Origin: Minisyncoccota bacterium
GTDB lineage: Bacteria; Patescibacteriota; Minisyncoccia; Phycocordibacterales; UBA1006
Assembly (NCBI GenBank): GCA_021209525.1
Contig: JAJOIF010000006.1
Location: 14,115-78,114 of the forward strand
Reading direction: 5' to 3'
DNA: 64,000 nucleotides
Below are positions 3,494 to 61,000 of this stretch, one piece after another. The number at the start of each line of letters is the position of its first letter. The stretch's first letter is position 1. The notes under the pieces were generated by a model. It ran no database searches and was not told the DNA's origin. It was given only the letters and a program-made list of their open reading frames with translations. The translations under genes and the position numbers were made by a program.

Positions 3494-3610
3494 TGAGTGC
3501 AAGGAGCTCTCGGGAGCAGCCGAGAATTACTCTGTAATAGAAAATTCTTACCCTCTCTTTTTATAAATCATGCTATACTATATACATTATTCATAATACA
3601 TTTTTTATCT

Positions 3611-4384: not shown

Positions 4385-4454
4385 AAGAGAGGGGAAACAT
4401 CAAGTATCAAATTATAAATCCCAAATAAATTCCAAATTACAAATCTTAAAATAC

Positions 4455-4478
4455 AAAAACCGGTTATGCCGGTTTTTT
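4455..4478 (+). terminator. rho-independent terminator (aaaaaccggttatgccggtttttt)
   Basis: GC hairpin ccggttatgccgg followed by T-run, downstream of the SIMPL gene. Confidence 0.7.
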
Positions 4479-4516
4479 GTGTTTTATCCTTGTTTTTGGG
4501 TCTTGGAACTTAGAAT

Positions 4517-4580
4517 TTCTTTGTATCTTGTATCTTGTATCTTGTATCTTGTATCTTGTATCTTGTATCTTGTATCTTGC
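4517..4580. repeat. tandem heptamer array (TCTTGTA, about 8 copies)
   Basis: Perfect 7-bp periodicity seen directly. Track ORFs 4477/4479 translate it as LYLVSCILYLVSC, which is an artefact. Confidence 0.9.
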
Positions 4581-4725
4581 TTTGCTCGCTGCAGTGAAGC
4601 GAAGGCGAGTATCTTTTCAATACCCTGCTCGTCCCAGCAGGTTCAGCGACGCGTTCTCCCTAAAAACTTGCATAAATTTTTATTCATTATATTATGCAAT
4701 AAAGATAACCTTAAAATATGTACAT

Positions 4726-12498: not shown

Positions 12499-12891
12499 AT
12501 GAAAATTGTTATTACACATGCAACCACATTTCCTTTTGAGCAAGAGCTCTATGCTCCACTGATGGCTGCTGATTTTTTTTCCGAACATGAATTTCTCTTG
12601 CCACAGCGCACGGGACTTGCGCAACAAATTACCGAAGATATGATTCGCACAGCAGATGTGGTCATTTGCGAAGTGTCATTACCTTCAACAGGGCAAGGGA
12701 TTGAAATAGGGTGGGCGACCGCACATAAAACACCTTGTGTGTGTATACACAAAAAAGACGCTCATATTTCAGGTGCACTACAGTATGTGTGCGATGTTAT
12801 TATTCCATATAGAGATACGCAGGATATGGTAGAGCAGGTGAGGAGGGTGTGTGGGGCAAGCACCAAGCACCAAACTCCAAATAACAAGTAA
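12499..12891 (+). CDS. nucleoside 2-deoxyribosyltransferase / DNPH1-like protein (putative)
   Basis: Short flavodoxin-like layout with ADVVICEVS...GQGIEIGWA resembling the NDT/Rcl fold; context is a thymidylate cluster. The last ~11 codons overlap a repeat-element TIR. Confidence 0.4.
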   Translation: MKIVITHATTFPFEQELYAPLMAADFFSEHEFLLPQRTGLAQQITEDMIRTADVVICEVSLPSTGQGIEIGWATAHKTPCVCIHKKDAHISGALQYVCDVIIPYRDTQDMVEQVRRVCGASTKHQTPNNK

Positions 12892-13139
12892 CCACCTCTT
12901 CTCCCTTCGTCCGCCGTAGCCTTGGCGAAGGCGGAGTGTTTCTTGTAAATGAGCTATTGGCATACGTACCACAAAGTCTGTAAGCGGTACCACAGCCGCG
13001 AGATCCCGGAATTTGTTCGCATGCTCACAAATTCCGGGAATGAGTGGTTGTTCGTATTTTCCGGGAAGGAGTGGTTATTTGTAATTTGCCTGCCTCGTTA
13101 TACGGGGTTGTATCTTGTTATTTGGCGCTTGGTGCTTAT
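12857..13139. mobile_element. MITE-like non-autonomous element (~283 bp) bounded by ~30-bp imperfect terminal inverted repeats (CAAGCACCAAGCACCAAA..AAATAACAAG)
   Basis: Left TIR 12857-12893 and right TIR 13105-13139 are reverse complements. Interior carries AATTCCGGGAA(T/G)GAGTGGTT direct repeats and the CCGTAGCCTTGGCGAAGGCGGAG module shared with other copies. Confidence 0.6.
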
Positions 13140-13185
13140 AACTTACATTCTACAAAAACAACCATATACATGCTATACTAAATCC

Positions 13186-16244: not shown

Positions 16245-17311
16245 ATGATAGAATTCTTAATACTCACTTTTGCCGTTATTATCGCATCAGGCATTTTTTC
16301 TGGAATTGAGGCCGCTCTCTTTTCAGTGTCACAAGCCCGTGCTCTCGTACTCAAAGAGCAGGGTATTGCCGGAGCAGACGCTCTCGTTACCCTCAAAACA
16401 AACCTCCAACAAGCAATTATCGTTATTGTTATTGGAAATAATATTGTAAATATTGCTGGATCTCTTTTTGTTGGGGTTGTGGCGGTGCGGCTTTTTGGAG
16501 ACCCGCTCATTGGACTCATTTCAGCCCTTTTAACACTTCTTATCATTATTTTTGGAGAAATCTTGCCAAAAACTATTGGTGAAAATAATGCAGAAAAATC
16601 AGCCTCGCTATTTCACGCCCGCTCACTGGACTTATCTTTATACTGAAGCCGCTCGTTATGTTGCTCGAGCAACTCACCAAGCGTTTTTCTACAGTACGCA
16701 AAATGGTTTCCGAAGAAGAGCTCTCTTTACTCTCAGAACTCGGACACCTCGAGGGAAGTATTGAAGAAGATGAGCGCGACATTATTCAGCGCGTCTTTAC
16801 GTTGAATGACATCACTGCATATGACATTATGACACCGCGCACTATGATGGTAGGGATTCACAAAGATACCGTGCTCGGTCACGCACGTGAAGAAATTTTT
16901 GAAATGTCTAATTCGCGTCTTCCGGTATATGGAGAAGATTATGATGACATTGTGGGTATGTGCTATATGCGCGATCTCTTGATTGCGCTCGCTCGTGATG
17001 AACACCAAAAGACTGTTTCTGATTATAGGAAAGACGTTCTCTATGTATCCGAAGATATGCGTGTTGATGATTTGCTCAGGTTATTCTTGTCTCGCCGAGG
17101 ACATATGGCTATTGTTAAAGATGAATTTGAAGGAACGAGTGGTCTCGTTACTCTTGAAGATGTCCTTGAACAACTCGTGGGAGAAATTGTTGATGAAACT
17201 GATGAGGTTGTAGATACACGCGAAGAAGCGAAACGCGAAGCCGAAGAGTCTGATTTGATTATTGAAGAATCAGAGGATAGGGAGGAAGAGGAAATTTCAA
17301 GTATCAAATAA
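16245..17311 (+). pseudogene. CNNM/CorC-HlyC family (DUF21 + 2xCBS + CorC_HlyC) transporter gene interrupted by a 1-nt frameshift near 16618-16625
   Basis: ORF 16245-16646 (DUF21 TM part) and ORF 16658-17311 (CBS pair + CorC_HlyC) read as one protein (..FHA-RPLTGLIFILKPLVMLLEQLTK..) if one base is restored in the CCC run at ~16619. Confidence 0.7.
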
Positions 17312-17354
17312 CAAATTCCAAGCCCATCAAACAGGGTGAGTGAGTAATAAATCC

Positions 17355-17866
17355 CAAGCACCAAATAACAAGATACAAACAAATTCCAATATAAAAAATA
17401 CAAAAATTACTCGACCTTCTTTATAATAGCAGAGAGAATGCGTCTAAGCGCTAAAGATTCCTCTTTCAGAGAATTGAGGAGTGCGCTGTTTCCTCCAGGA
17501 TCAACATGCAACAAAGAAAGCCAGTACTCTGTTTCGCGTGCTTCTCTGCGAGAGATTTTCATATATTTTTACATATCTTTTTTACTCAATCCTTCATTTG
17601 CTTCAATATAATTAGCCCCAATAGATGAGGATGAGCGAAGTAATTGCACATAGTATACTTTGTTAATAAATGTATTTTTGTTGGTAAAACATAATTACGA
17701 ACGTCTATTGCAAATCTTTGTGTGCGATCGATAAGGTCATATGTCATATGTGATCTAATATACACAAATTATATGAATATTAGATAAATTCAGTTTTGAG
17801 ATTCATATATTGATTCTTGGTATTTGTTTGGTATTTGTTATTTGGTGCTTGGTGCTTTTAAATTCC
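17355..17866. mobile_element. TIR-bounded element (~510 bp) of the CAAGCACCAAATAACAAG family carrying a decayed four-helix-bundle protein gene
   Basis: Left TIR 17355-17390 and inverted right TIR 17814-17866; an additional partial TIR at 17298-17324 overlaps the stop of the upstream gene. Confidence 0.55.
17407..17694 (-). pseudogene. four-helix-bundle (23S rRNA intervening-sequence type) protein, fragmented
   Basis: Minus-strand frames give ..VYYVQLLRSSSSIGANYIEANEGLSKKDM* followed by MKISRREARETEYWLSLLHVDPG.. (EYWL motif). Two frames, an internal stop and no N-terminal Met. Confidence 0.5.
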
Positions 17867-17956
17867 ATTTCCTTACTTCATGTATCTTTTTGCATATGCG
17901 CATATAACTTCCCACAAACAAAAAAACCACCCAGAGGGGTGATTTTTGAAAAGACA

Positions 17957-18304
17957 TTATTTTTTAGCTTCAGATACGATATTTTCGAATGCTTGCGGAT
18001 TATGTTCTGCAATATCAGCAAGTACTTTGCGATCGAGGGTGATATCTTTCTTTTTAAGCATATCAATAAAGCGACTATATGAAAGACCAAATGCGCGTAC
18101 TGCGGCATTGATTTTGATAGTCCATAAACGACGGAAATCTCCTTTTTTGTCTTTGCGGTGAGCAAAGGCGTGATTTCCTGCATGCAAGATTGCTTCTTTT
18201 GCTTGTCTGAATTTCTTTGAGCGACCAAAACGATATCCTTTAGCGAGCTTGAGGACATTTTTACGTCGTTTATTTGCGATGGTTCCTCGTTTTACACGTG
18301 ACAT
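17957..18304 (-). CDS. rplT: 50S ribosomal protein L20
   Basis: Canonical L20 sequence [28 protein letters not shown]. Confidence 0.95.
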
Positions 18305-26977: not shown

Positions 26978-27245
26978 AAAAGAAGACACACAAAAACCAC
27001 TCATATGAGTGGTTTTTGTGTGTATGATCTATATATGATTTGCAAAGAGTATTTTTCTGTGATAGTATGTATATACAACTGAATATGATTATAAAGATGT
27101 AGCAAGAGTACTGGCTCTATGACCTACAGGCAACCCTCATTATGAGAAGGTGCCCCATCCAGCCAACACAGTAATGTGTATGGAAAGATAAGAATAGTCC
27201 TTCTGTCTTTCTCATTATTATGAGATTTTTTTTATTATATTTTCT

Positions 27246-28199
27246 ATGAAATATAGAACTGCTGAATGTGTTTCGCCTATGCATCCTGACAAAATATGTG
27301 ATCGCATAGCCGACGCGCTTCTTGACGCATATCTTGCTCAAGACCCAGAGAGTCGTATTGCTCTTGAGGTTATGGGTGGACACGGGTCCTTGATTATTAA
27401 TGGAGAGGTAACCTCTACTGCACAGGTCGATATTGAAAAAGTTGCTCGTACATATATCGATAAAGATACTACCATTATTTCGCATATTGTTCCTCAAAGC
27501 ACAGAAATTGCGCGTGGCGTAGATGATGGCGGGGCTGGAGATCAAGGTATTATGGTGGGGTACGCAACCGCAGAAACACCAGAGCTTTTGCCTTTAGAAT
27601 ATGTGCTTGCTCGTTCACTCTGTCAAGCGGTATACGAAGTGTATCCATATGACGGCAAAACACAAGTCACTATAATAGACGGACGAGTCGCTACGGTTGT
27701 GGTAAGTTTTCAAAATGCGCCTCATGATGCGCTCTATGCACTGGTACGCAATCATATAGACGCAGATGAGTATATTATTAATCCTGCAGGGGATTGGTCG
27801 CTCGGCGGTTTTGATGCGGACACAGGACTGTCGGGGCGCAAAATAGTTGTTGATCATTATGGGCCACATATTCCTGTCGGGGGAGGATCATTTTCGGGTA
27901 AGGATTACACTAAAGTAGATCGTTCTGGTGCTTATATGGCTCGTCGCATTGCATGCGATTTACTTGAACAGCACCACGCTCAAGAGGTGTACGTATACCT
28001 TGTATATGCTATAGGCAAAAAAGATCCGATTATGGCTCGCGCAATAATAGATGGTACAGAGTGTGCTATTACTGGATATCATCTTGCTCCACGAGACATT
28101 GCTCAATCGCTTTCATTAAAAACATGTTCTTTTTTAGAGACGGCTTCCTGGGGACATTTTGGAAGAGGTTTTCAGTGGGATGCTCCGCAACATTCATAA
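27246..28199 (+). CDS. metK: S-adenosylmethionine synthetase (unusually short, 317 aa)
   Basis: MetK motifs HPDKICDRIADALLDAY, GAGDQGIMVGYA, GGGSFSGKDYTKVDRSGAYMARRIA. Confidence 0.85.
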   Translation: MKYRTAECVSPMHPDKICDRIADALLDAYLAQDPESRIALEVMGGHGSLIINGEVTSTAQVDIEKVARTYIDKDTTIISHIVPQSTEIARGVDDGGAGDQGIMVGYATAETPELLPLEYVLARSLCQAVYEVYPYDGKTQVTIIDGRVATVVVSFQNAPHDALYALVRNHIDADEYIINPAGDWSLGGFDADTGLSGRKIVVDHYGPHIPVGGGSFSGKDYTKVDRSGAYMARRIACDLLEQHHAQEVYVYLVYAIGKKDPIMARAIIDGTECAITGYHLAPRDIAQSLSLKTCSFLETASWGHFGRGFQWDAPQHS

Positions 28200-43299: not shown

Positions 43300-43306
43300 A
43301 GGCAGG

Positions 43307-43605
43307 CAAGCACCAAAAACCAAACAAATTACAACCCTGCTCAGCGAGACAAGAAACAAATAACCGCTCATTCCCGGAATACGCGAGGAAACGAGCGTAT
43401 GTCCGGGATCTCGTGTCTTGTTAATGAGTGCGCAACATAAGTGCCACTGAAACGAGACCCCGGACATTTTCTCCGTTAGCACTCCGAAAATTCCGGGGAA
43501 GAGGTGGTGGATCACAAATTCCGGGGAAGAAGTGATGATTCTTGAGATTTGTATTACTCGCCGTAGCGAAGCGAAGGAGAGGAATTTGGAATTTGGTGCT
43601 TGGTC
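43307..43605. mobile_element. MITE-like element (~299 bp), same family as 12857-13139
   Basis: Left end CAAGCACCAAAAACCAAACAAATT, right end reverse complement of GACCAAGCACCAAATTCCAAATTC. Interior has ATTCCGGGAA/AAATTCCGGGGAAGA direct repeats, a 13-bp-stem hairpin (ATGTCCGGGATCTCG...CGAGACCCCGGACAT) and the CCGTAGCGAAGCGAAGGAGAG module. Confidence 0.55.
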
Positions 43606-43666
43606 GGTCACCTCCCATATGCTATACTAAAATCATCACTTATTAGGTATTAACGAGTATTTTTAT

Positions 43667-57077: not shown

Positions 57078-57547
57078 AAGGCAGCCCTTTCTTTGCACAC
57101 TCATTCTGAATACTATTATTAATCATTAGTATATAGAATTAAATGAATAAAGGAGCGAAAGCGACTATTATGAATTTATGCAAAGCAAGCGTACGGCAAA
57201 GAAAGGATATCGGGTTTCAGCAGAGATCAAACAACAAATTATCAGTAGAATTAAGACGGTGTTTTTTATGGATAATCCTTGCCTTGATGACTCATATGAC
57301 GTATGATAGTTCGTATGAGCGTTTGAGAGGCTATCATCCTCGAGCTTTGGGAAGAACGTGCAGATTTCTGCATCAGTAGAACCTGACGGTGTCTTGCGTC
57401 CGTTATCGCACAAAGAAGTGTTCTTGGATATTCTTGTCCAAGAAAAACAAGGTGGTACCGCGGGGAAACTCGTCCTTGTAGAGCGCAATGCGCTGTATCA
57501 AGGGCGAGTTTTTTTATTTTTTCTTTATCAGTAATACGTATACTTGT

Positions 57548-60500
57548 ATGTCTATGTCACCAGAATCACTTACCAAAAAATCATCATATGCCGAGCGCGA
57601 AGAGCGTATTCTCGCATTTTGGGAAGATCAAAAAATTTTTCAAAAAACACTTACCAAAAAAGCTCCTTTGGGCGATTTTATATTTTATGAAGGACCGCCT
57701 ACCGCTAATGGGCGGCCAGGTATTCATCACCTTGCATCTCGTGCCTTCAAAGATGCTTTTCCTCGCTACAAAACAATGCGAGGATATTATGTGCGCCGCA
57801 AAGGAGGATGGGATACGCACGGTCTTCCGGTGGAGCTTGAGGTTGAAAAACAACTTGGCCTTGCCTCTAAAAAAGACATTGAATCATATGGCATTGAGGC
57901 ATTTAATCATGCATGTCGTCAGTCAGTATGGACATACCTTAATGAATGGCAAGATTTCACCAAGCGTATTGGGTACTGGCTTGATATGGATCATCCGTAT
58001 ATTACTTATGATGAAAAATATGTAGAATCGCTCTGGTGGGTAATGAAGCAAATTGCTGATAAAAATCTCCTCTACAAAGACTACAAAATTGTGCCATGGT
58101 GCCCTCGTTGTGGTACAGGACTCTCAAGTCATGAACTTGCCCAAGGATATGCTGATGTCAAAGATATTTCTATTATTGCAAAATTCAAAGTCAGCAATCA
58201 CACGTATGATCGTGATACCTATATTCTCGCATGGACAACAACACCATGGACATTACCAGGCAATGTCGCCCTTGCTGTTGGTGCATCTATTACCTATGCG
58301 CGCATTTTGTGTGATGGTGTATATTATGTAGTCGCTCAGGATCTTGTGACCAAAGTATTCCATGGTCGCGAATATGCCGTTGTAGATACATGTATGGGAG
58401 ATGATTTGGCGGGGATGACTTATGAACCACTTTTCCCGTACATGCAATACGCACATGCGCGTGAGCCTATTCCTCATATGGAAAATGCATATGCTGTATA
58501 TGCTGCAGATTTTGTCACTACCGGAGATGGTACAGGGGTGGTGCACACAGCGGTTATGTATGGTCAAGACGACTTTGAATTAGGAAACAAGGTTTCTTTG
58601 CCTAAATTTCACATCATTCATCCAGATGGTGCATTCAAAGAAGATATGGGTGTACTCTCTGGTCGCTTTATCAAAGAAATGATAGATGGCAAACCGACAC
58701 TTGATATTGATATTATCAAACATCTCCAAGAAACCGACACTTTTTTTGCAAAAGAAAAATACGACCACAATTATCCGCATTGTTGGCGCTGTAAAACACC
58801 ACTCGTGTATTATGCGCGAGATTCGTGGTACATCAATATGCAAGATGTCAAAGCCGATCTCATTGCAGAGAATCAATCTATTGCATGGCATCCAGAATAT
58901 GTAGGGCAAGGGCGTTTTGGTGAATGGCTCCAAGAGCTCAAAGACTGGGCTATTTCTCGTGAGCGCTACTGGGGTACACCATTACCGCTCTGGCAATCAC
59001 CAGATGGCGACATGTGGGCTGTTGGTGGTTTTGATGACATCTACCGCCACGCAGAACCATCAGTACTTACCAAAATGATAATCATGCGCCACGCAGAAAG
59101 TGAAAAAAACATAGCTGATGTGTGGGATGCATCTGACGACACGTACCCGCTCACTGCAACAGGGCGCGCTCAAGCACAAGCATGTGCTCAGAAACTGAAA
59201 GATGCAGGTATTGATATTATTGTGGCTTCGCCAGTGCGTCGCACACGAGAAACCGCAGAAATTATTGCGCGCGAAATTGGTGCAACTATGCACATAGAAG
59301 AAGCCTTGCGCGAAATTGATTCGGGTAATTGGGAAGGAAAAACATATGCCGAAGTCAAAGAGAGTCGTGATGCATATAATGCGCTTGATTCAGATGCATT
59401 TCATCACGCAATTCGCGGAGATCATGGCGAGAGTTGGCAAACATTTGATGAGCGTGTGAGTGCGTGGTATCGTGATGTGTGTACGCGTTATGCAGGCAAA
59501 ACTATTTTAGTAGTGAGCCACTTTGCAAATCTTGTATATATTTTCAAGAATTATAAAAATATTTCTCACACCGAAGCATCGCGACTATTCACCAAGCCTG
59601 ATTTTGGTGTATATGTAGTACCAACAACACTCTATATTGATCAGCGCACAGGGTATGCTTTTGACCCGCATCGTCCATTTGTAGATACCATCACCCTTGC
59701 TCGCGAAGGAAAAACATATACGCGTGTGCCAGAAGTCATCGATGTGTGGTTTGACTCGGGTGCTATGCCTTTTGCGCAAGATCATTACATGGGCGAAGGT
59801 AGCTTTAGTTATCCTGCAGATGTCATTGCCGAAGGAATGGATCAAACCCGTGGGTGGTTCTACACCTTGCACGCTATTGGAAACTTGCTTGGATATGGCA
59901 AGGCATATAAAAATGTCATCAGTCTGGGGCTTATTAATGATGCGCAAGGACAAAAAATGTCAAAGTCAAAAGGGAATACCGTCAATCCATGGGATGCCAT
60001 GAATACGTTTGGAGTAGATACCATCCGTTTTTGGATGTATTCAGTGAGCGGCCCTGGTGATGCAAAGAGTTTTGATGAAAAGACAATTCTTGAAACACAA
60101 CGCAAAGTATTTGGTCTCCTTGATAATGTGGTTCATTTTTACGAATTATATCGTGCTTCGTATGATGCATCATATATTCCTCAAGAATCTCCGCATATTC
60201 TCGATCAGTGGATCCTCGCGCGACTTCATTATGTTGTAGCGACTATGACGCATCACATGGATGCATATCGCATCCTTGAATCAACACGGCTCGTGCGTGA
60301 CTTTATTGCAGATCTCTCGCAATGGTATATTCGCCGCAGTCGTGACCGCTTCAAAGAAACAGGTCGTGATATGTACTTTGCTTTGGCGACAACCCAGTAT
60401 GTACTCGATACACTTGCAAGGCTTATGGCACCTTTTGCACCATTCTTTGCCGAAGATATGTACCAACGTATTGAAGGTGCAGAAATATCAGTGCATATGG

Positions 60501-61000
60501 CATCGTGGCCTACTGAAAAACCATATGACCAAGAAGTACTCAAAGACATGGATCGTGTTCGCACACTCATTTCTGAGGCACTTGAATTACGCGCCCAAGC
60601 AAAAATAAAAGTGCGTCAACCACTGCAAGTACTTACCCTTACAGGAGATCCTCTTGATGAGACATACGAAGCACTCATCAAAGACGAAGTAAATGTCAAA
60701 GATATTGCTTATGGTGACACGAATGCACTTGATACGACGATTACTGATGCCTTACGCGCTGAAGGAGATGTGCGCGAATTGGTTAGACATATTCAAAATC
60801 TACGCAAAGACAAGGGGTTGCATCCAGATGATCGCATTCATGTAGTTATTGATACTGATGATGCGGGCAAGGTATTTTTTGATACGCACGCTGCAACGAT
60901 TCAAGGGCTTACTAATATTGCTACGTACGCTTTTGGATCCATCGCTGGCGATGCAATAGAAGTGACACATGGGGTATATCGTATAGGTATTACAGAATAA
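57548..61000 (+). CDS. ileS: isoleucine--tRNA ligase with an in-frame ~190-aa histidine-phosphatase (PGM-like) domain insertion
   Basis: HIGH-region PTANGRPGIHH, editing domain TTPWTLPGN, WISRERYWGTP, DVWFDSG, KMSKS (QKMSKSKGN). Inserted block carries RHAESEKN, SPVRRTRETAEII, EIDSGNWEG, VVSHFANL. Start may be the second ATG at 57554. Confidence 0.85.
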   Translation: MSMSPESLTKKSSYAEREERILAFWEDQKIFQKTLTKKAPLGDFIFYEGPPTANGRPGIHHLASRAFKDAFPRYKTMRGYYVRRKGGWDTHGLPVELEVEKQLGLASKKDIESYGIEAFNHACRQSVWTYLNEWQDFTKRIGYWLDMDHPYITYDEKYVESLWWVMKQIADKNLLYKDYKIVPWCPRCGTGLSSHELAQGYADVKDISIIAKFKVSNHTYDRDTYILAWTTTPWTLPGNVALAVGASITYARILCDGVYYVVAQDLVTKVFHGREYAVVDTCMGDDLAGMTYEPLFPYMQYAHAREPIPHMENAYAVYAADFVTTGDGTGVVHTAVMYGQDDFELGNKVSLPKFHIIHPDGAFKEDMGVLSGRFIKEMIDGKPTLDIDIIKHLQETDTFFAKEKYDHNYPHCWRCKTPLVYYARDSWYINMQDVKADLIAENQSIAWHPEYVGQGRFGEWLQELKDWAISRERYWGTPLPLWQSPDGDMWAVGGFDDIYRHAEPSVLTKMIIMRHAESEKNIADVWDASDDTYPLTATGRAQAQACAQKLKDAGIDIIVASPVRRTRETAEIIAREIGATMHIEEALREIDSGNWEGKTYAEVKESRDAYNALDSDAFHHAIRGDHGESWQTFDERVSAWYRDVCTRYAGKTILVVSHFANLVYIFKNYKNISHTEASRLFTKPDFGVYVVPTTLYIDQRTGYAFDPHRPFVDTITLAREGKTYTRVPEVIDVWFDSGAMPFAQDHYMGEGSFSYPADVIAEGMDQTRGWFYTLHAIGNLLGYGKAYKNVISLGLINDAQGQKMSKSKGNTVNPWDAMNTFGVDTIRFWMYSVSGPGDAKSFDEKTILETQRKVFGLLDNVVHFYELYRASYDASYIPQESPHILDQWILARLHYVVATMTHHMDAYRILESTRLVRDFIADLSQWYIRRSRDRFKETGRDMYFALATTQYVLDTLARLMAPFAPFFAEDMYQRIEGAEISVHMASWPTEKPYDQEVLKDMDRVRTLISEALELRAQAKIKVRQPLQVLTLTGDPLDETYEALIKDEVNVKDIAYGDTNALDTTITDALRAEGDVRELVRHIQNLRKDKGLHPDDRIHVVIDTDDAGKVFFDTHAATIQGLTNIATYAFGSIAGDAIEVTHGVYRIGITE

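Follow-up and report, generated by a model that had tools for sequence, protein, structure and literature searches.

Inserts that are bounded by inverted repeats and contain an open reading frame (ORF) of the S23p type have been a known kind of element since the 1990s. Coxiella's intervening sequence (IVS) combines an inverted-repeat stem with an S23p ORF that shows signs of decay and with heptamers upstream of this ORF, and it is excised by RNase III (PMC4990558). In the candidate phyla radiation (CPR), insertions in both 16S and 23S rRNA genes contain 23S_rRNA_IVP ORFs (PMC11270868). Avd, an accessory protein of diversity-generating retroelements (DGRs), is essential for retrohoming (PMC10053308). 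Where IVSs come from, how they move, and what their four-helix-bundle (4HB) ORF does have been questions since the early 1990s (PMC4990558). Here we analyze an element of about 520 nt with a decayed 4HB gene in a 64,000-nt stretch of DNA from a Minisyncoccota bacterium (GenBank assembly GCA_021209525.1, contig JAJOIF010000006.1, positions 14,115 to 78,114). This whole stretch is called the window in the following, and position 1 is its first letter.

We read the window copy as a dead and fixed palindromic cassette of the IVS type, in which inverted arms surround a decayed 4HB gene, and we assign this reading a probability of roughly 55%. The cassette family occurs in many phyla and takes three forms: arms with a 4HB gene, arms alone, which is the commonest form among the matches listed below, and arms around other GC-rich hairpins. 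Its members lie in transcribed spacers, namely at gene 3′ ends, between the cistrons of operons, and in at least one 16S rRNA helix.

A decayed four-helix-bundle gene between heptamer arms

The 4HB pseudogene (PF05635/TIGR02436) was delimited by reading frames, profiles, and homologues at 17407-17747 on the minus strand. It falls into three pieces: MTYDLIDRTQRFAIDVRNYVLPTK is followed by a frameshift in an A5/T5 run near 17675-17680, NKNTFINKVYYVQLLRSSSSIGANYIEANEGLSKKDM by an in-frame TAA at 17569-17571, and KYMKISRREARETEYWLSLLHVDPGGNSALLNSLKEESLALRRILSAIIKKVE is the last piece; the natural stop is located at 17407-17409. An earlier note on this DNA, made from the sequence alone, had called the gene dead because of an internal stop and a frameshift, both of which we confirm. 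It had also reported that an N-terminal Met was lacking, which is wrong: an ATG at 17747-17745 lies in a third frame and starts a segment encoding MTYDLIDRTQRFAIDVRNYV. The repaired translation scores 48.9 bits against PF05635 (cut-off 33.8) and 62.8 bits against TIGR02436 (cut-off 24), and 94-100% of its length aligns to homologues of 109-125 amino acids at 50-54% identity, which bears out the assignment of the minus-strand fragments to a 4HB protein. The closest solved structure is PDB 2RLD (residues 13-117, E = 3.6e-10), an entry with five chains. No domain beyond PF05635/TIGR02436 was matched in the 4HB protein, and a tblastn search of the window returned no further 4HB sequence. A link to anti-phage defence was discarded, as PADLOC gave only a noise match of 13.5 bits.

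The ORF is interrupted by this one frameshift and one TAA in identical form in eight assemblies, the window and seven others, whereas other homopolymer indels vary among the same assemblies, as seen in the T run of the rplT terminator and in a 1-nt indel of the neighboring CNNM gene. Because the lesions agree where other homopolymers differ, a sequencing error behind the frameshift can be ruled out. The pseudogene is real and fixed in the population.

The inverted arms of the element are located at 17354-17400 and 17806-17852, each 47 nt long and 79% complementary (inverted-repeat search, I1), and by eye the heptamers of both arms continue outward to 17349 and 17866. The repeat of about 36 bp with an imperfect reverse complement that the earlier note had described is present. 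In the orientation of the gene, the upstream arm (17806-17866, read on the minus strand; inverted repeat, 18-mer core, nhmmer E = 2e-5) has the sequence AAAAGCACC AAGCACC AAATAAC AAATACC AAACAAATACC AAGAATC, and the heptamer reading of the window arm is AAGCACC AAGCACC AAATAAC AAATACC AAACAAATACC. The downstream arm (17349-17400, read on the plus strand; inverted repeat, core match, nhmmer) reads AAATCCC AAGCACC AAATAAC AAGATAC AAACAAATTCC AAT... and, except for one additional heptamer, equals the arm of locus L114 (AAATCCCAAGCACCAAATAACAAACAAATTCCAAT). Both arms contain the exact core CCAAGCACCAAATAACAA, and the 18-mer core is found at 17835-17852 in the upstream arm. From the outside inward, the arm units are AAGCACC / AAATYCC / AAATAAC, then AAACAAAT. 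An AATGACC arm end, found in the wider family, is present in the window copy as a degenerate trace only. The spacer of about 60 nt between upstream arm and ATG, which is longer than in most intact cassettes, includes an internal palindrome with 12-nt arms at 17753-17785 (inverted repeat I17).

Arms as simple in composition as these could be mistaken for a chance likeness between stretches of intergenic DNA that are A/C-rich or T/G-rich and of low complexity, with an unrelated pseudogene in between, and short matches are easily obtained in AT-rich genomes. However, when up to 3 mismatches are allowed, the window contains the core CCAAGCACCAAATAACAA 8 times where shuffles predict 0.09 occurrences, and 0 of 100 shuffles reached this number. 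An nhmmer profile of the arms finds seven window arms with E-values from 6e-6 to 2e-4, and one more with a weak match. An 18-mer is common to arms of different loci, a consensus of about 50 nt recurs in more than 100 unrelated contigs, and the association with 4HB genes persists in a comparison with controls of equal geometry, as described below. The arms are arrays of degenerate 7-nt units, not random low-complexity DNA, and the controls refute chance similarity. The earlier note had named a fall of arm similarity to chance level as the result that would speak against it; the similarity we find lies above that level.

Linkage of arms and gene beyond the window

We sampled 80 4HB loci across many phyla, taking them from species-representative genomes, and scored 78 of them for inverted arms. 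To this end, the 180-nt stretch upstream of the ORF was aligned locally with the reverse complement of the 180-nt stretch downstream, and the best alignment gave the score. As controls, 286 displaced positions with the same geometry were used. A score of at least 12 was reached at 62 of the 78 4HB loci and at 5 of the 286 controls; for a score of at least 20, the numbers are 23 of 78 and 0 of 286. The arms of these loci are heptamer arrays of the type AAATNCN (AAATCCG, AAATTCC, AAATTCT/AAACCCT, AAGCACG etc.), often ending in AAACAAAT on the gene side. A 7-nt periodicity is seen on both flanks (lag-7 autocorrelation 0.38-0.41 vs 0.26 in controls), and the density of arrays is 0.8 per kb beside 4HB genes compared to 0.11 per kb elsewhere in the loci, a difference of about sevenfold. 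In the genome loci, the start context AATGAC is found at 21 of 71 4HB genes and at 3 of 258 control ORFs. Where a locus holds a second 4HB gene, arrays flank it on both sides in L080 and on a single side in L072. Beyond this window, too, the arms form a physically linked unit with the 4HB gene, as the earlier note had supposed for its own copy. Paired 4HB genes were observed in L090 (1429-2251, in tandem), L080 (2365-2825), and L072 (2339-2759).

Each flavor of the heptamer is found in several phyla. The flavor tracks the similarity of the 4HB proteins, also in pairs from different phyla (mean identity 0.609 vs 0.579, by a permutation test that ignores relatedness), and this apparent covariation is suggestive only. 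One flavor, (A)AACCCT/AAATCCT, found in L030, L029, L080, and others, matches the plant-type telomere unit CCCTAAA, which is probably a coincidence. Two recurrent sites illustrate where the cassettes reside. In three Bacteroidota contigs, a 4HB gene flanked by AAATTCC / GGAATTT arrays is located between pntA-4TM and pntB. In CPR-like type IV secretion operons, it lies between two cistrons and has arms of 58-65 nt starting with AAATCCCAAGCTCCAAGCACCAAATTCC. In L012 (2400-3150) and L014 (2400-3120), a TraC-like ORF stops exactly before the cassette and the VirB4 P-loop ORF starts, with GTG, exactly after it, and the flavors at this same site differ (AAATCCC/AAGCACC vs GAAATAC x4).

In a metagenome scan, we identified the 18-mer core of the window in at least 120 contigs, none of which shows further nucleotide similarity to the window; their hosts include Thermodesulfobacteriota/Desulfobacterales. 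The contigs listed yield the consensus (T)AAGCACC AAATYCC AAGCACC AAATAAC AAAYAARYTCC AATGACC MAAAC, about 50 nt long and with a sharp outer edge, in which conservation extends past the 18-mer by about 13 nt outward and 25-30 nt inward. The upstream arm of the window element follows the same plan from its outer to its inner end. Classes of sites were counted over 121 sites among the matches listed. A 4HB gene is located beside 7 of them, while an inverted partner within 150 nt inward at 57 sites defines gene-less hairpins of about 120-200 nt; 8 sites have a distant partner, 44 lack a scorable partner, and 9 are truncated by the contig end. Among these matches, gene-less arm copies are the commonest form of the family.

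Intact cassettes with the same arm core are present in L107, L112, L166, and L170. In these, the 4HB gene starts with an ATG inside the innermost arm heptamer, AATGAMC, and ends with a stop codon directly beside the inverse arm. The corresponding AATGA[ACT]C is found inward of the core at 42 of the 121 listed sites, most of them gene-less. That a start-codon motif occurs in many gene-less copies fits a derivation from gene-bearing cassettes, and on the simplest reading of these sequences, the gene-less hairpins would be cassettes that lost the ORF by deletion and kept a start-codon stub. The reverse direction, in which an ORF recruited an arm unit as its start, may also apply.

A direct connection to rRNA insertions is provided by locus L150, a bacterial 16S rRNA gene (RF00177, 1183 bits) that carries a 135-nt hairpin of the arm family. 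The hairpin interrupts a helix at its tip, with GCAACCC... on one side and GGAGGAAGGTGGGGATGACG on the other (417-576 of the locus, minus strand), and is a classical intervening sequence. A motif screen for rRNA context in the 80 genome loci and at least 120 metagenome loci flagged L150 alone, which Rfam confirmed. The same 16S rRNA has a second insertion of about 48 nt near model position 455. No Rfam family covers the arms, either in the window (at gathering threshold or E <= 1) or in 20 related loci.

The additional copies named by the earlier note also exist, at 4396-4588 (copy C), 12856-13139 (copy A), 43305-43610 (copy B), and as a solo arm at 17294-17327. The three pairs are gene-less, and tblastn gave no signal for 4HB remnants in any of them. 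In copy A, supported by core match and nhmmer, the arms surround a nested GC-rich palindrome of about 230 nt, and the left arm codes for the final codons of an upstream ORF. Copy B, supported likewise, has a homologous core in the same orientation. These cores (12889-13105 in A and 43336-43575 in B) contain repeated TTCCGGGRA-GAGTGG motifs and are both strongly structured, with fold z-scores of -6.0 for copy A and -5.3 for copy B. Each matches only the other, with no match in Rfam or any fetched locus; they may represent a nested second repeat or a structured RNA specific to this lineage. Directly outside the right arms of A and B, at 13160-13185 and 43612-43637, we observed a longer motif, CATATGCTATACTAAA, whose sites are upstream of tmk and lemA. 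It includes an extended -10-like box, TGCTATACT, at 13171 and 43620, which is also found at 3571, 7301, and 9927.

Copy C, detected by nhmmer, has heptamer arms around a terminator-like hairpin and is the one copy with such a hairpin: at the apex of the copy lies CCGGTTATGCCGG, followed by a T run. The outer right side of copy C (4513-4588) consists of about eight perfect tandem TGTATCT heptamers, whereas the other arms are degenerate, which suggests a recent expansion of this array by slippage. The solo arm is the best nhmmer match (E = 6e-6), is also part of the repeats D4 and I2, and overlaps the last codons and the stop (17309-17311) of the CNNM/CBS gene. The 4HB element has in its left arm the same 18-mer, CCAAATAACAAGATACAA, as copy A in its right arm, and arms across loci are therefore as alike as partner arms.

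Folding, mobility, and function of the cassettes

On one side of the element, a CNNM/CBS transporter gene ends (plus strand, 16245-17311); on the other is the minus-strand infC-rpmI-rplT operon with its terminator, the rplT intrinsic terminator hairpin at 17947-17922 (terminator scan). The L20, IF3, and CBS proteins encoded here are identical to proteins of metagenome-assembled genomes assigned to Candidatus Paceibacterota (CPR). No rRNA was found in the window by an Rfam scan, and the element is thus outside rRNA genes. Both of its strands fold with the arms paired (z = -3.4 and -5.8), so that a stem encloses an insert with an S23p-type ORF in the loop, which is the structure of an IVS. By analogy to ORF-bearing and ORF-less rRNA IVSs, for which this cleavage has been demonstrated by experiment, we propose that the arms pair in the transcript to form a long imperfect duplex, which RNase III would cut. 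The insert would then be removed or neutralized in the RNA and could be tolerated wherever it landed. Gene-less hairpins could arise when gene-bearing cassettes undergo internal deletions. As an element-encoded factor, the 4HB protein is the sole candidate. Proteins of this type are pentameric and bind nucleic acids, and the DGR homologue Avd partners with a reverse transcriptase. What is conserved is the heptamer motif together with its inverted arrangement. The window copy, just past the rplT terminator, most likely does nothing more than form a hairpin.

A number of observations weigh against an IVS-type cassette as described above. The arms pair at only about 77-79%, and G.U-compatible mismatches are not in excess over A.C-type mismatches (136 vs 143); therefore, there is no sequence signal of RNA-stem selection on either strand, and we abandoned the idea of a strand-specific selection for the stem. 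Copies A and B have cores that bear no relation to the 4HB gene, so a simple deletion fails to explain these two. The window copy is located downstream of an intrinsic terminator and lacks a promoter recognizable in our promoter/terminator scan, and given both, it may hardly be transcribed. Cleavage by RNase III is an extrapolation from rRNA IVSs of other organisms. Finally, no insertion junction was caught. A search of the 64-kb window for an RNase III signature found none, which carries no weight for the rest of the genome.

The earlier note had interpreted the copies as a parent element and its miniature inverted-repeat transposable element (MITE) derivatives. If this were a classical DNA transposon with MITEs, the arms would be terminal inverted repeats recognized by a transposase, the 4HB copy would be a parent or a passenger-carrying copy, and the gene-less copies would be mobilized in trans. 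Inverted repeats are indeed conserved at the termini of the copies, their outer edge is sharp, and an arm consensus is defined across unrelated genomes in the contigs listed. Moreover, gene-less copies are in the majority among the matches listed, copies are scattered in intergenic DNA of many phyla, and states of presence and absence are found at one orthologous site. This pnt site is occupied by a full cassette in the Bacteroidota loci L004, L001, and L003. A 57-nt spacer with a solo left arm is found in L222/L223 (PntB 98% identical to the L004 protein), and L224/L225 (PntB 93% identical) have an unrelated spacer of 69 nt; no exact junction was seen. The pnt site shows gain or loss of the cassette, and its states explain solo arms such as 17294-17327.

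On the other hand, the solo-arm intermediate at the pnt site looks like decay rather than excision. We saw no target-site duplication, for which the earlier note had advised a check, by eye at the four window copies and about ten metagenome copies, although this was not an exhaustive scan and duplications of 1-2 nt are possible at such fuzzy arm ends. No transposase family or domain was matched, and the only cargo of the gene-bearing copies is the 4HB ORF for a helical bundle of 110 amino acids. In addition, the arms are 7-nt arrays with a variable number and order of units instead of unique termini. At the window locus, no empty site could be compared, since the nearest CNNM orthologues (74% identity, L096-L101) have other neighbors and no arm repeats. 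We conclude that a parent-derivative relation is in agreement with the intact gene-bearing cassettes, the gene-less majority, and the AATGAMC stubs, but that the MITE part of the proposal is not supported: transposase and target-site duplications were not found, the arrays vary, and copies A and B contain an unrelated GC-rich module of 230 nt. A classical transposon is thus an unlikely explanation.

The position of many copies raises the question whether the hairpins serve the host. In this case, the arrays would be binding sites or RNA structures for 3′-end protection, termination, or insulation of cistrons, with the 4HB protein as the cognate binder whose gene is sometimes nested in its own site, and the likeness across phyla would reflect a protein-nucleic acid code rather than mobility. 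Such a role is consistent with the location of copies near gene 3′ ends: 47 of 81 listed copies have an ORF of at least 80 codons that ends -80 to +19 nt from the copy. It is also in line with the hairpin at the apex of copy C, the promoter-like TGCTATACT boxes after copies A and B, the conservation of motif rather than base pairing, and the covariation of heptamer flavor and protein. But one copy resides inside a 16S rRNA helix, the distribution is patchy among close relatives, with no copy in the nearest sampled relatives of the window organism, and 4HB genes decay both here and in Coxiella (PMC4990558). The pattern is the one typical of dispensable inserts, and we consider a service to the host improbable. 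A more specific idea, that the element terminus supplies the stop codon of the upstream gene, was rejected because the ORF ends are scattered from -80 to +19. The terminator scan returned nothing matching the arms of the window element, which do not form the GC-rich stem with U tract of an intrinsic terminator.

Among the accessory families of DGR loci, the commonest is PF05635, whose proteins are homologous to Avd (PMC10053308), so the pseudogene could in principle be a decayed Avd gene left behind by a DGR. This reading fails because no reverse transcriptase is nearby: the genes within about 4 kb belong to housekeeping families only (IF3, L35, L20, CNNM/CBS, ArgRS, dUTPase, and TruB in the precomputed Pfam annotation). 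Direct repeats of more than 30 nt, as expected for template and variable repeats, are absent from 17000-18300, and inverted heptamer arms are not a DGR feature. We regard a DGR remnant as very improbable. The attC site of integrons, a look-alike with an imperfect palindrome at the 3′ end of cassettes, was set aside, as there is no integrase or cassette array and a heptamer periodicity is not an attC trait.

We therefore retain the IVS-type cassette as our preferred reading of the window copy. A broader proposal is that rRNA IVSs, free-standing 4HB genes, and gene-less hairpins are one mobile palindromic family spanning phyla, characterized by inverted AAATNCN arrays and the arm plan of about 50 nt. 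The 4HB protein could then be a sequence-specific nucleic-acid-binding factor for spread or maintenance, and the gene-less copies would be non-autonomous. We advance this unification tentatively, as a possibility with the odds against it; if true, it would define a class of mobile elements without a conventional transposase.

Some features of the surrounding DNA were noted in passing. Relative to L005-L009, where the CNNM/CBS gene is intact and encodes 355 amino acids, the window, L010, and L011 have lost 1 nt near 16594, which breaks the gene into two ORFs, and this indel is due to either population heterogeneity or an assembly error. The argS gene is intact in the window (567 amino acids) and called as two ORFs in the sister assemblies L005 and L010, a further sign of indel heterogeneity among these assemblies. 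Immediately upstream of a 1170-aa ORF (57488-61000), the plus strand shows a T-box-leader-like match at 57313-57480, which at 56.7 bits (E = 1e-9) stays under the gathering score of 93 and may be a divergent CPR T-box. A SAM riboswitch at 27086-27194 on the plus strand (56.8 bits, above the gathering score) is located upstream of the ORF 27246-28199.

Comparison with described elements

The window element most closely resembles the ORF-containing rRNA IVSs of Leptospira, Coxiella, Xanthomonas, and Brucella and the CPR insertions, which are inserts of about 430-760 nt with stem-forming inverted repeats and an S23p ORF of about 110-120 amino acids in the loop. Decay of the ORF and a sporadic, seemingly horizontally acquired distribution are further common traits (PMC4990558, PMC11270868), and one member of the arm family, L150, likewise resides inside a 16S rRNA gene. 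In contrast to these IVSs, the window copy and most of its relatives are found in spacers between protein-coding genes. Arms that are heptamer arrays conserved across phyla belong to the window family, for which an excision by RNase III would be assumed by analogy. The ORF-less rRNA IVSs of the Salmonella, Yersinia, and Campylobacter type are non-coding hairpins of about 100-200 nt, like the gene-less majority and L150, but they are defined by their position in rRNA and were compared here by description.

Among mobile or palindromic repeats, MITEs, repetitive extragenic palindromes (REP) and bacterial interspersed mosaic elements (BIME), Correia elements, repeat units of pneumococcus (RUP), and Nezha share with the window family that they are short, non-coding, rod-folding, multi-copy, and intergenic and have conserved inverted ends. 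The window family differs in that no target-site duplication was seen and no linked transposase or REP-associated tyrosine transposase (RAYT) gene was found, in that its arm consensus is present in different phyla, and in that the only linked gene encodes the 4HB protein. The short tandemly repeated repetitive (STRR) heptamers of cyanobacteria are likewise tandem 7-nt units in intergenic DNA, arranged as direct arrays, and we know of no report of STRRs as inverted pairs around a 4HB gene. Avd of DGRs is homologous in its four-helix-bundle fold and family (PMC10053308), whereas the window locus is devoid of a reverse transcriptase (within about 4 kb) and of template/variable repeats (17000-18300).

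In Rfam and the searchable literature, whose coverage is incomplete so that an earlier description is possible, we found no account of the heptamer-array arm family across phyla, of the near-universal link of such arms to free-standing 4HB genes, of the predominance of gene-less hairpins, or of the direct link to an rRNA insertion. The window copy, a dead relic, does not obviously affect its host, and its value is that of an entry point to the family. For annotation, the arms allow recognition of a common intergenic repeat class and of a very abundant family of small “hypothetical” genes. If the pattern holds, there are hundreds of copies outside rRNA genes, some of them in cultured Bacteroidota, and the rRNA IVSs would be one niche of a far larger element family with a searchable arm signature.

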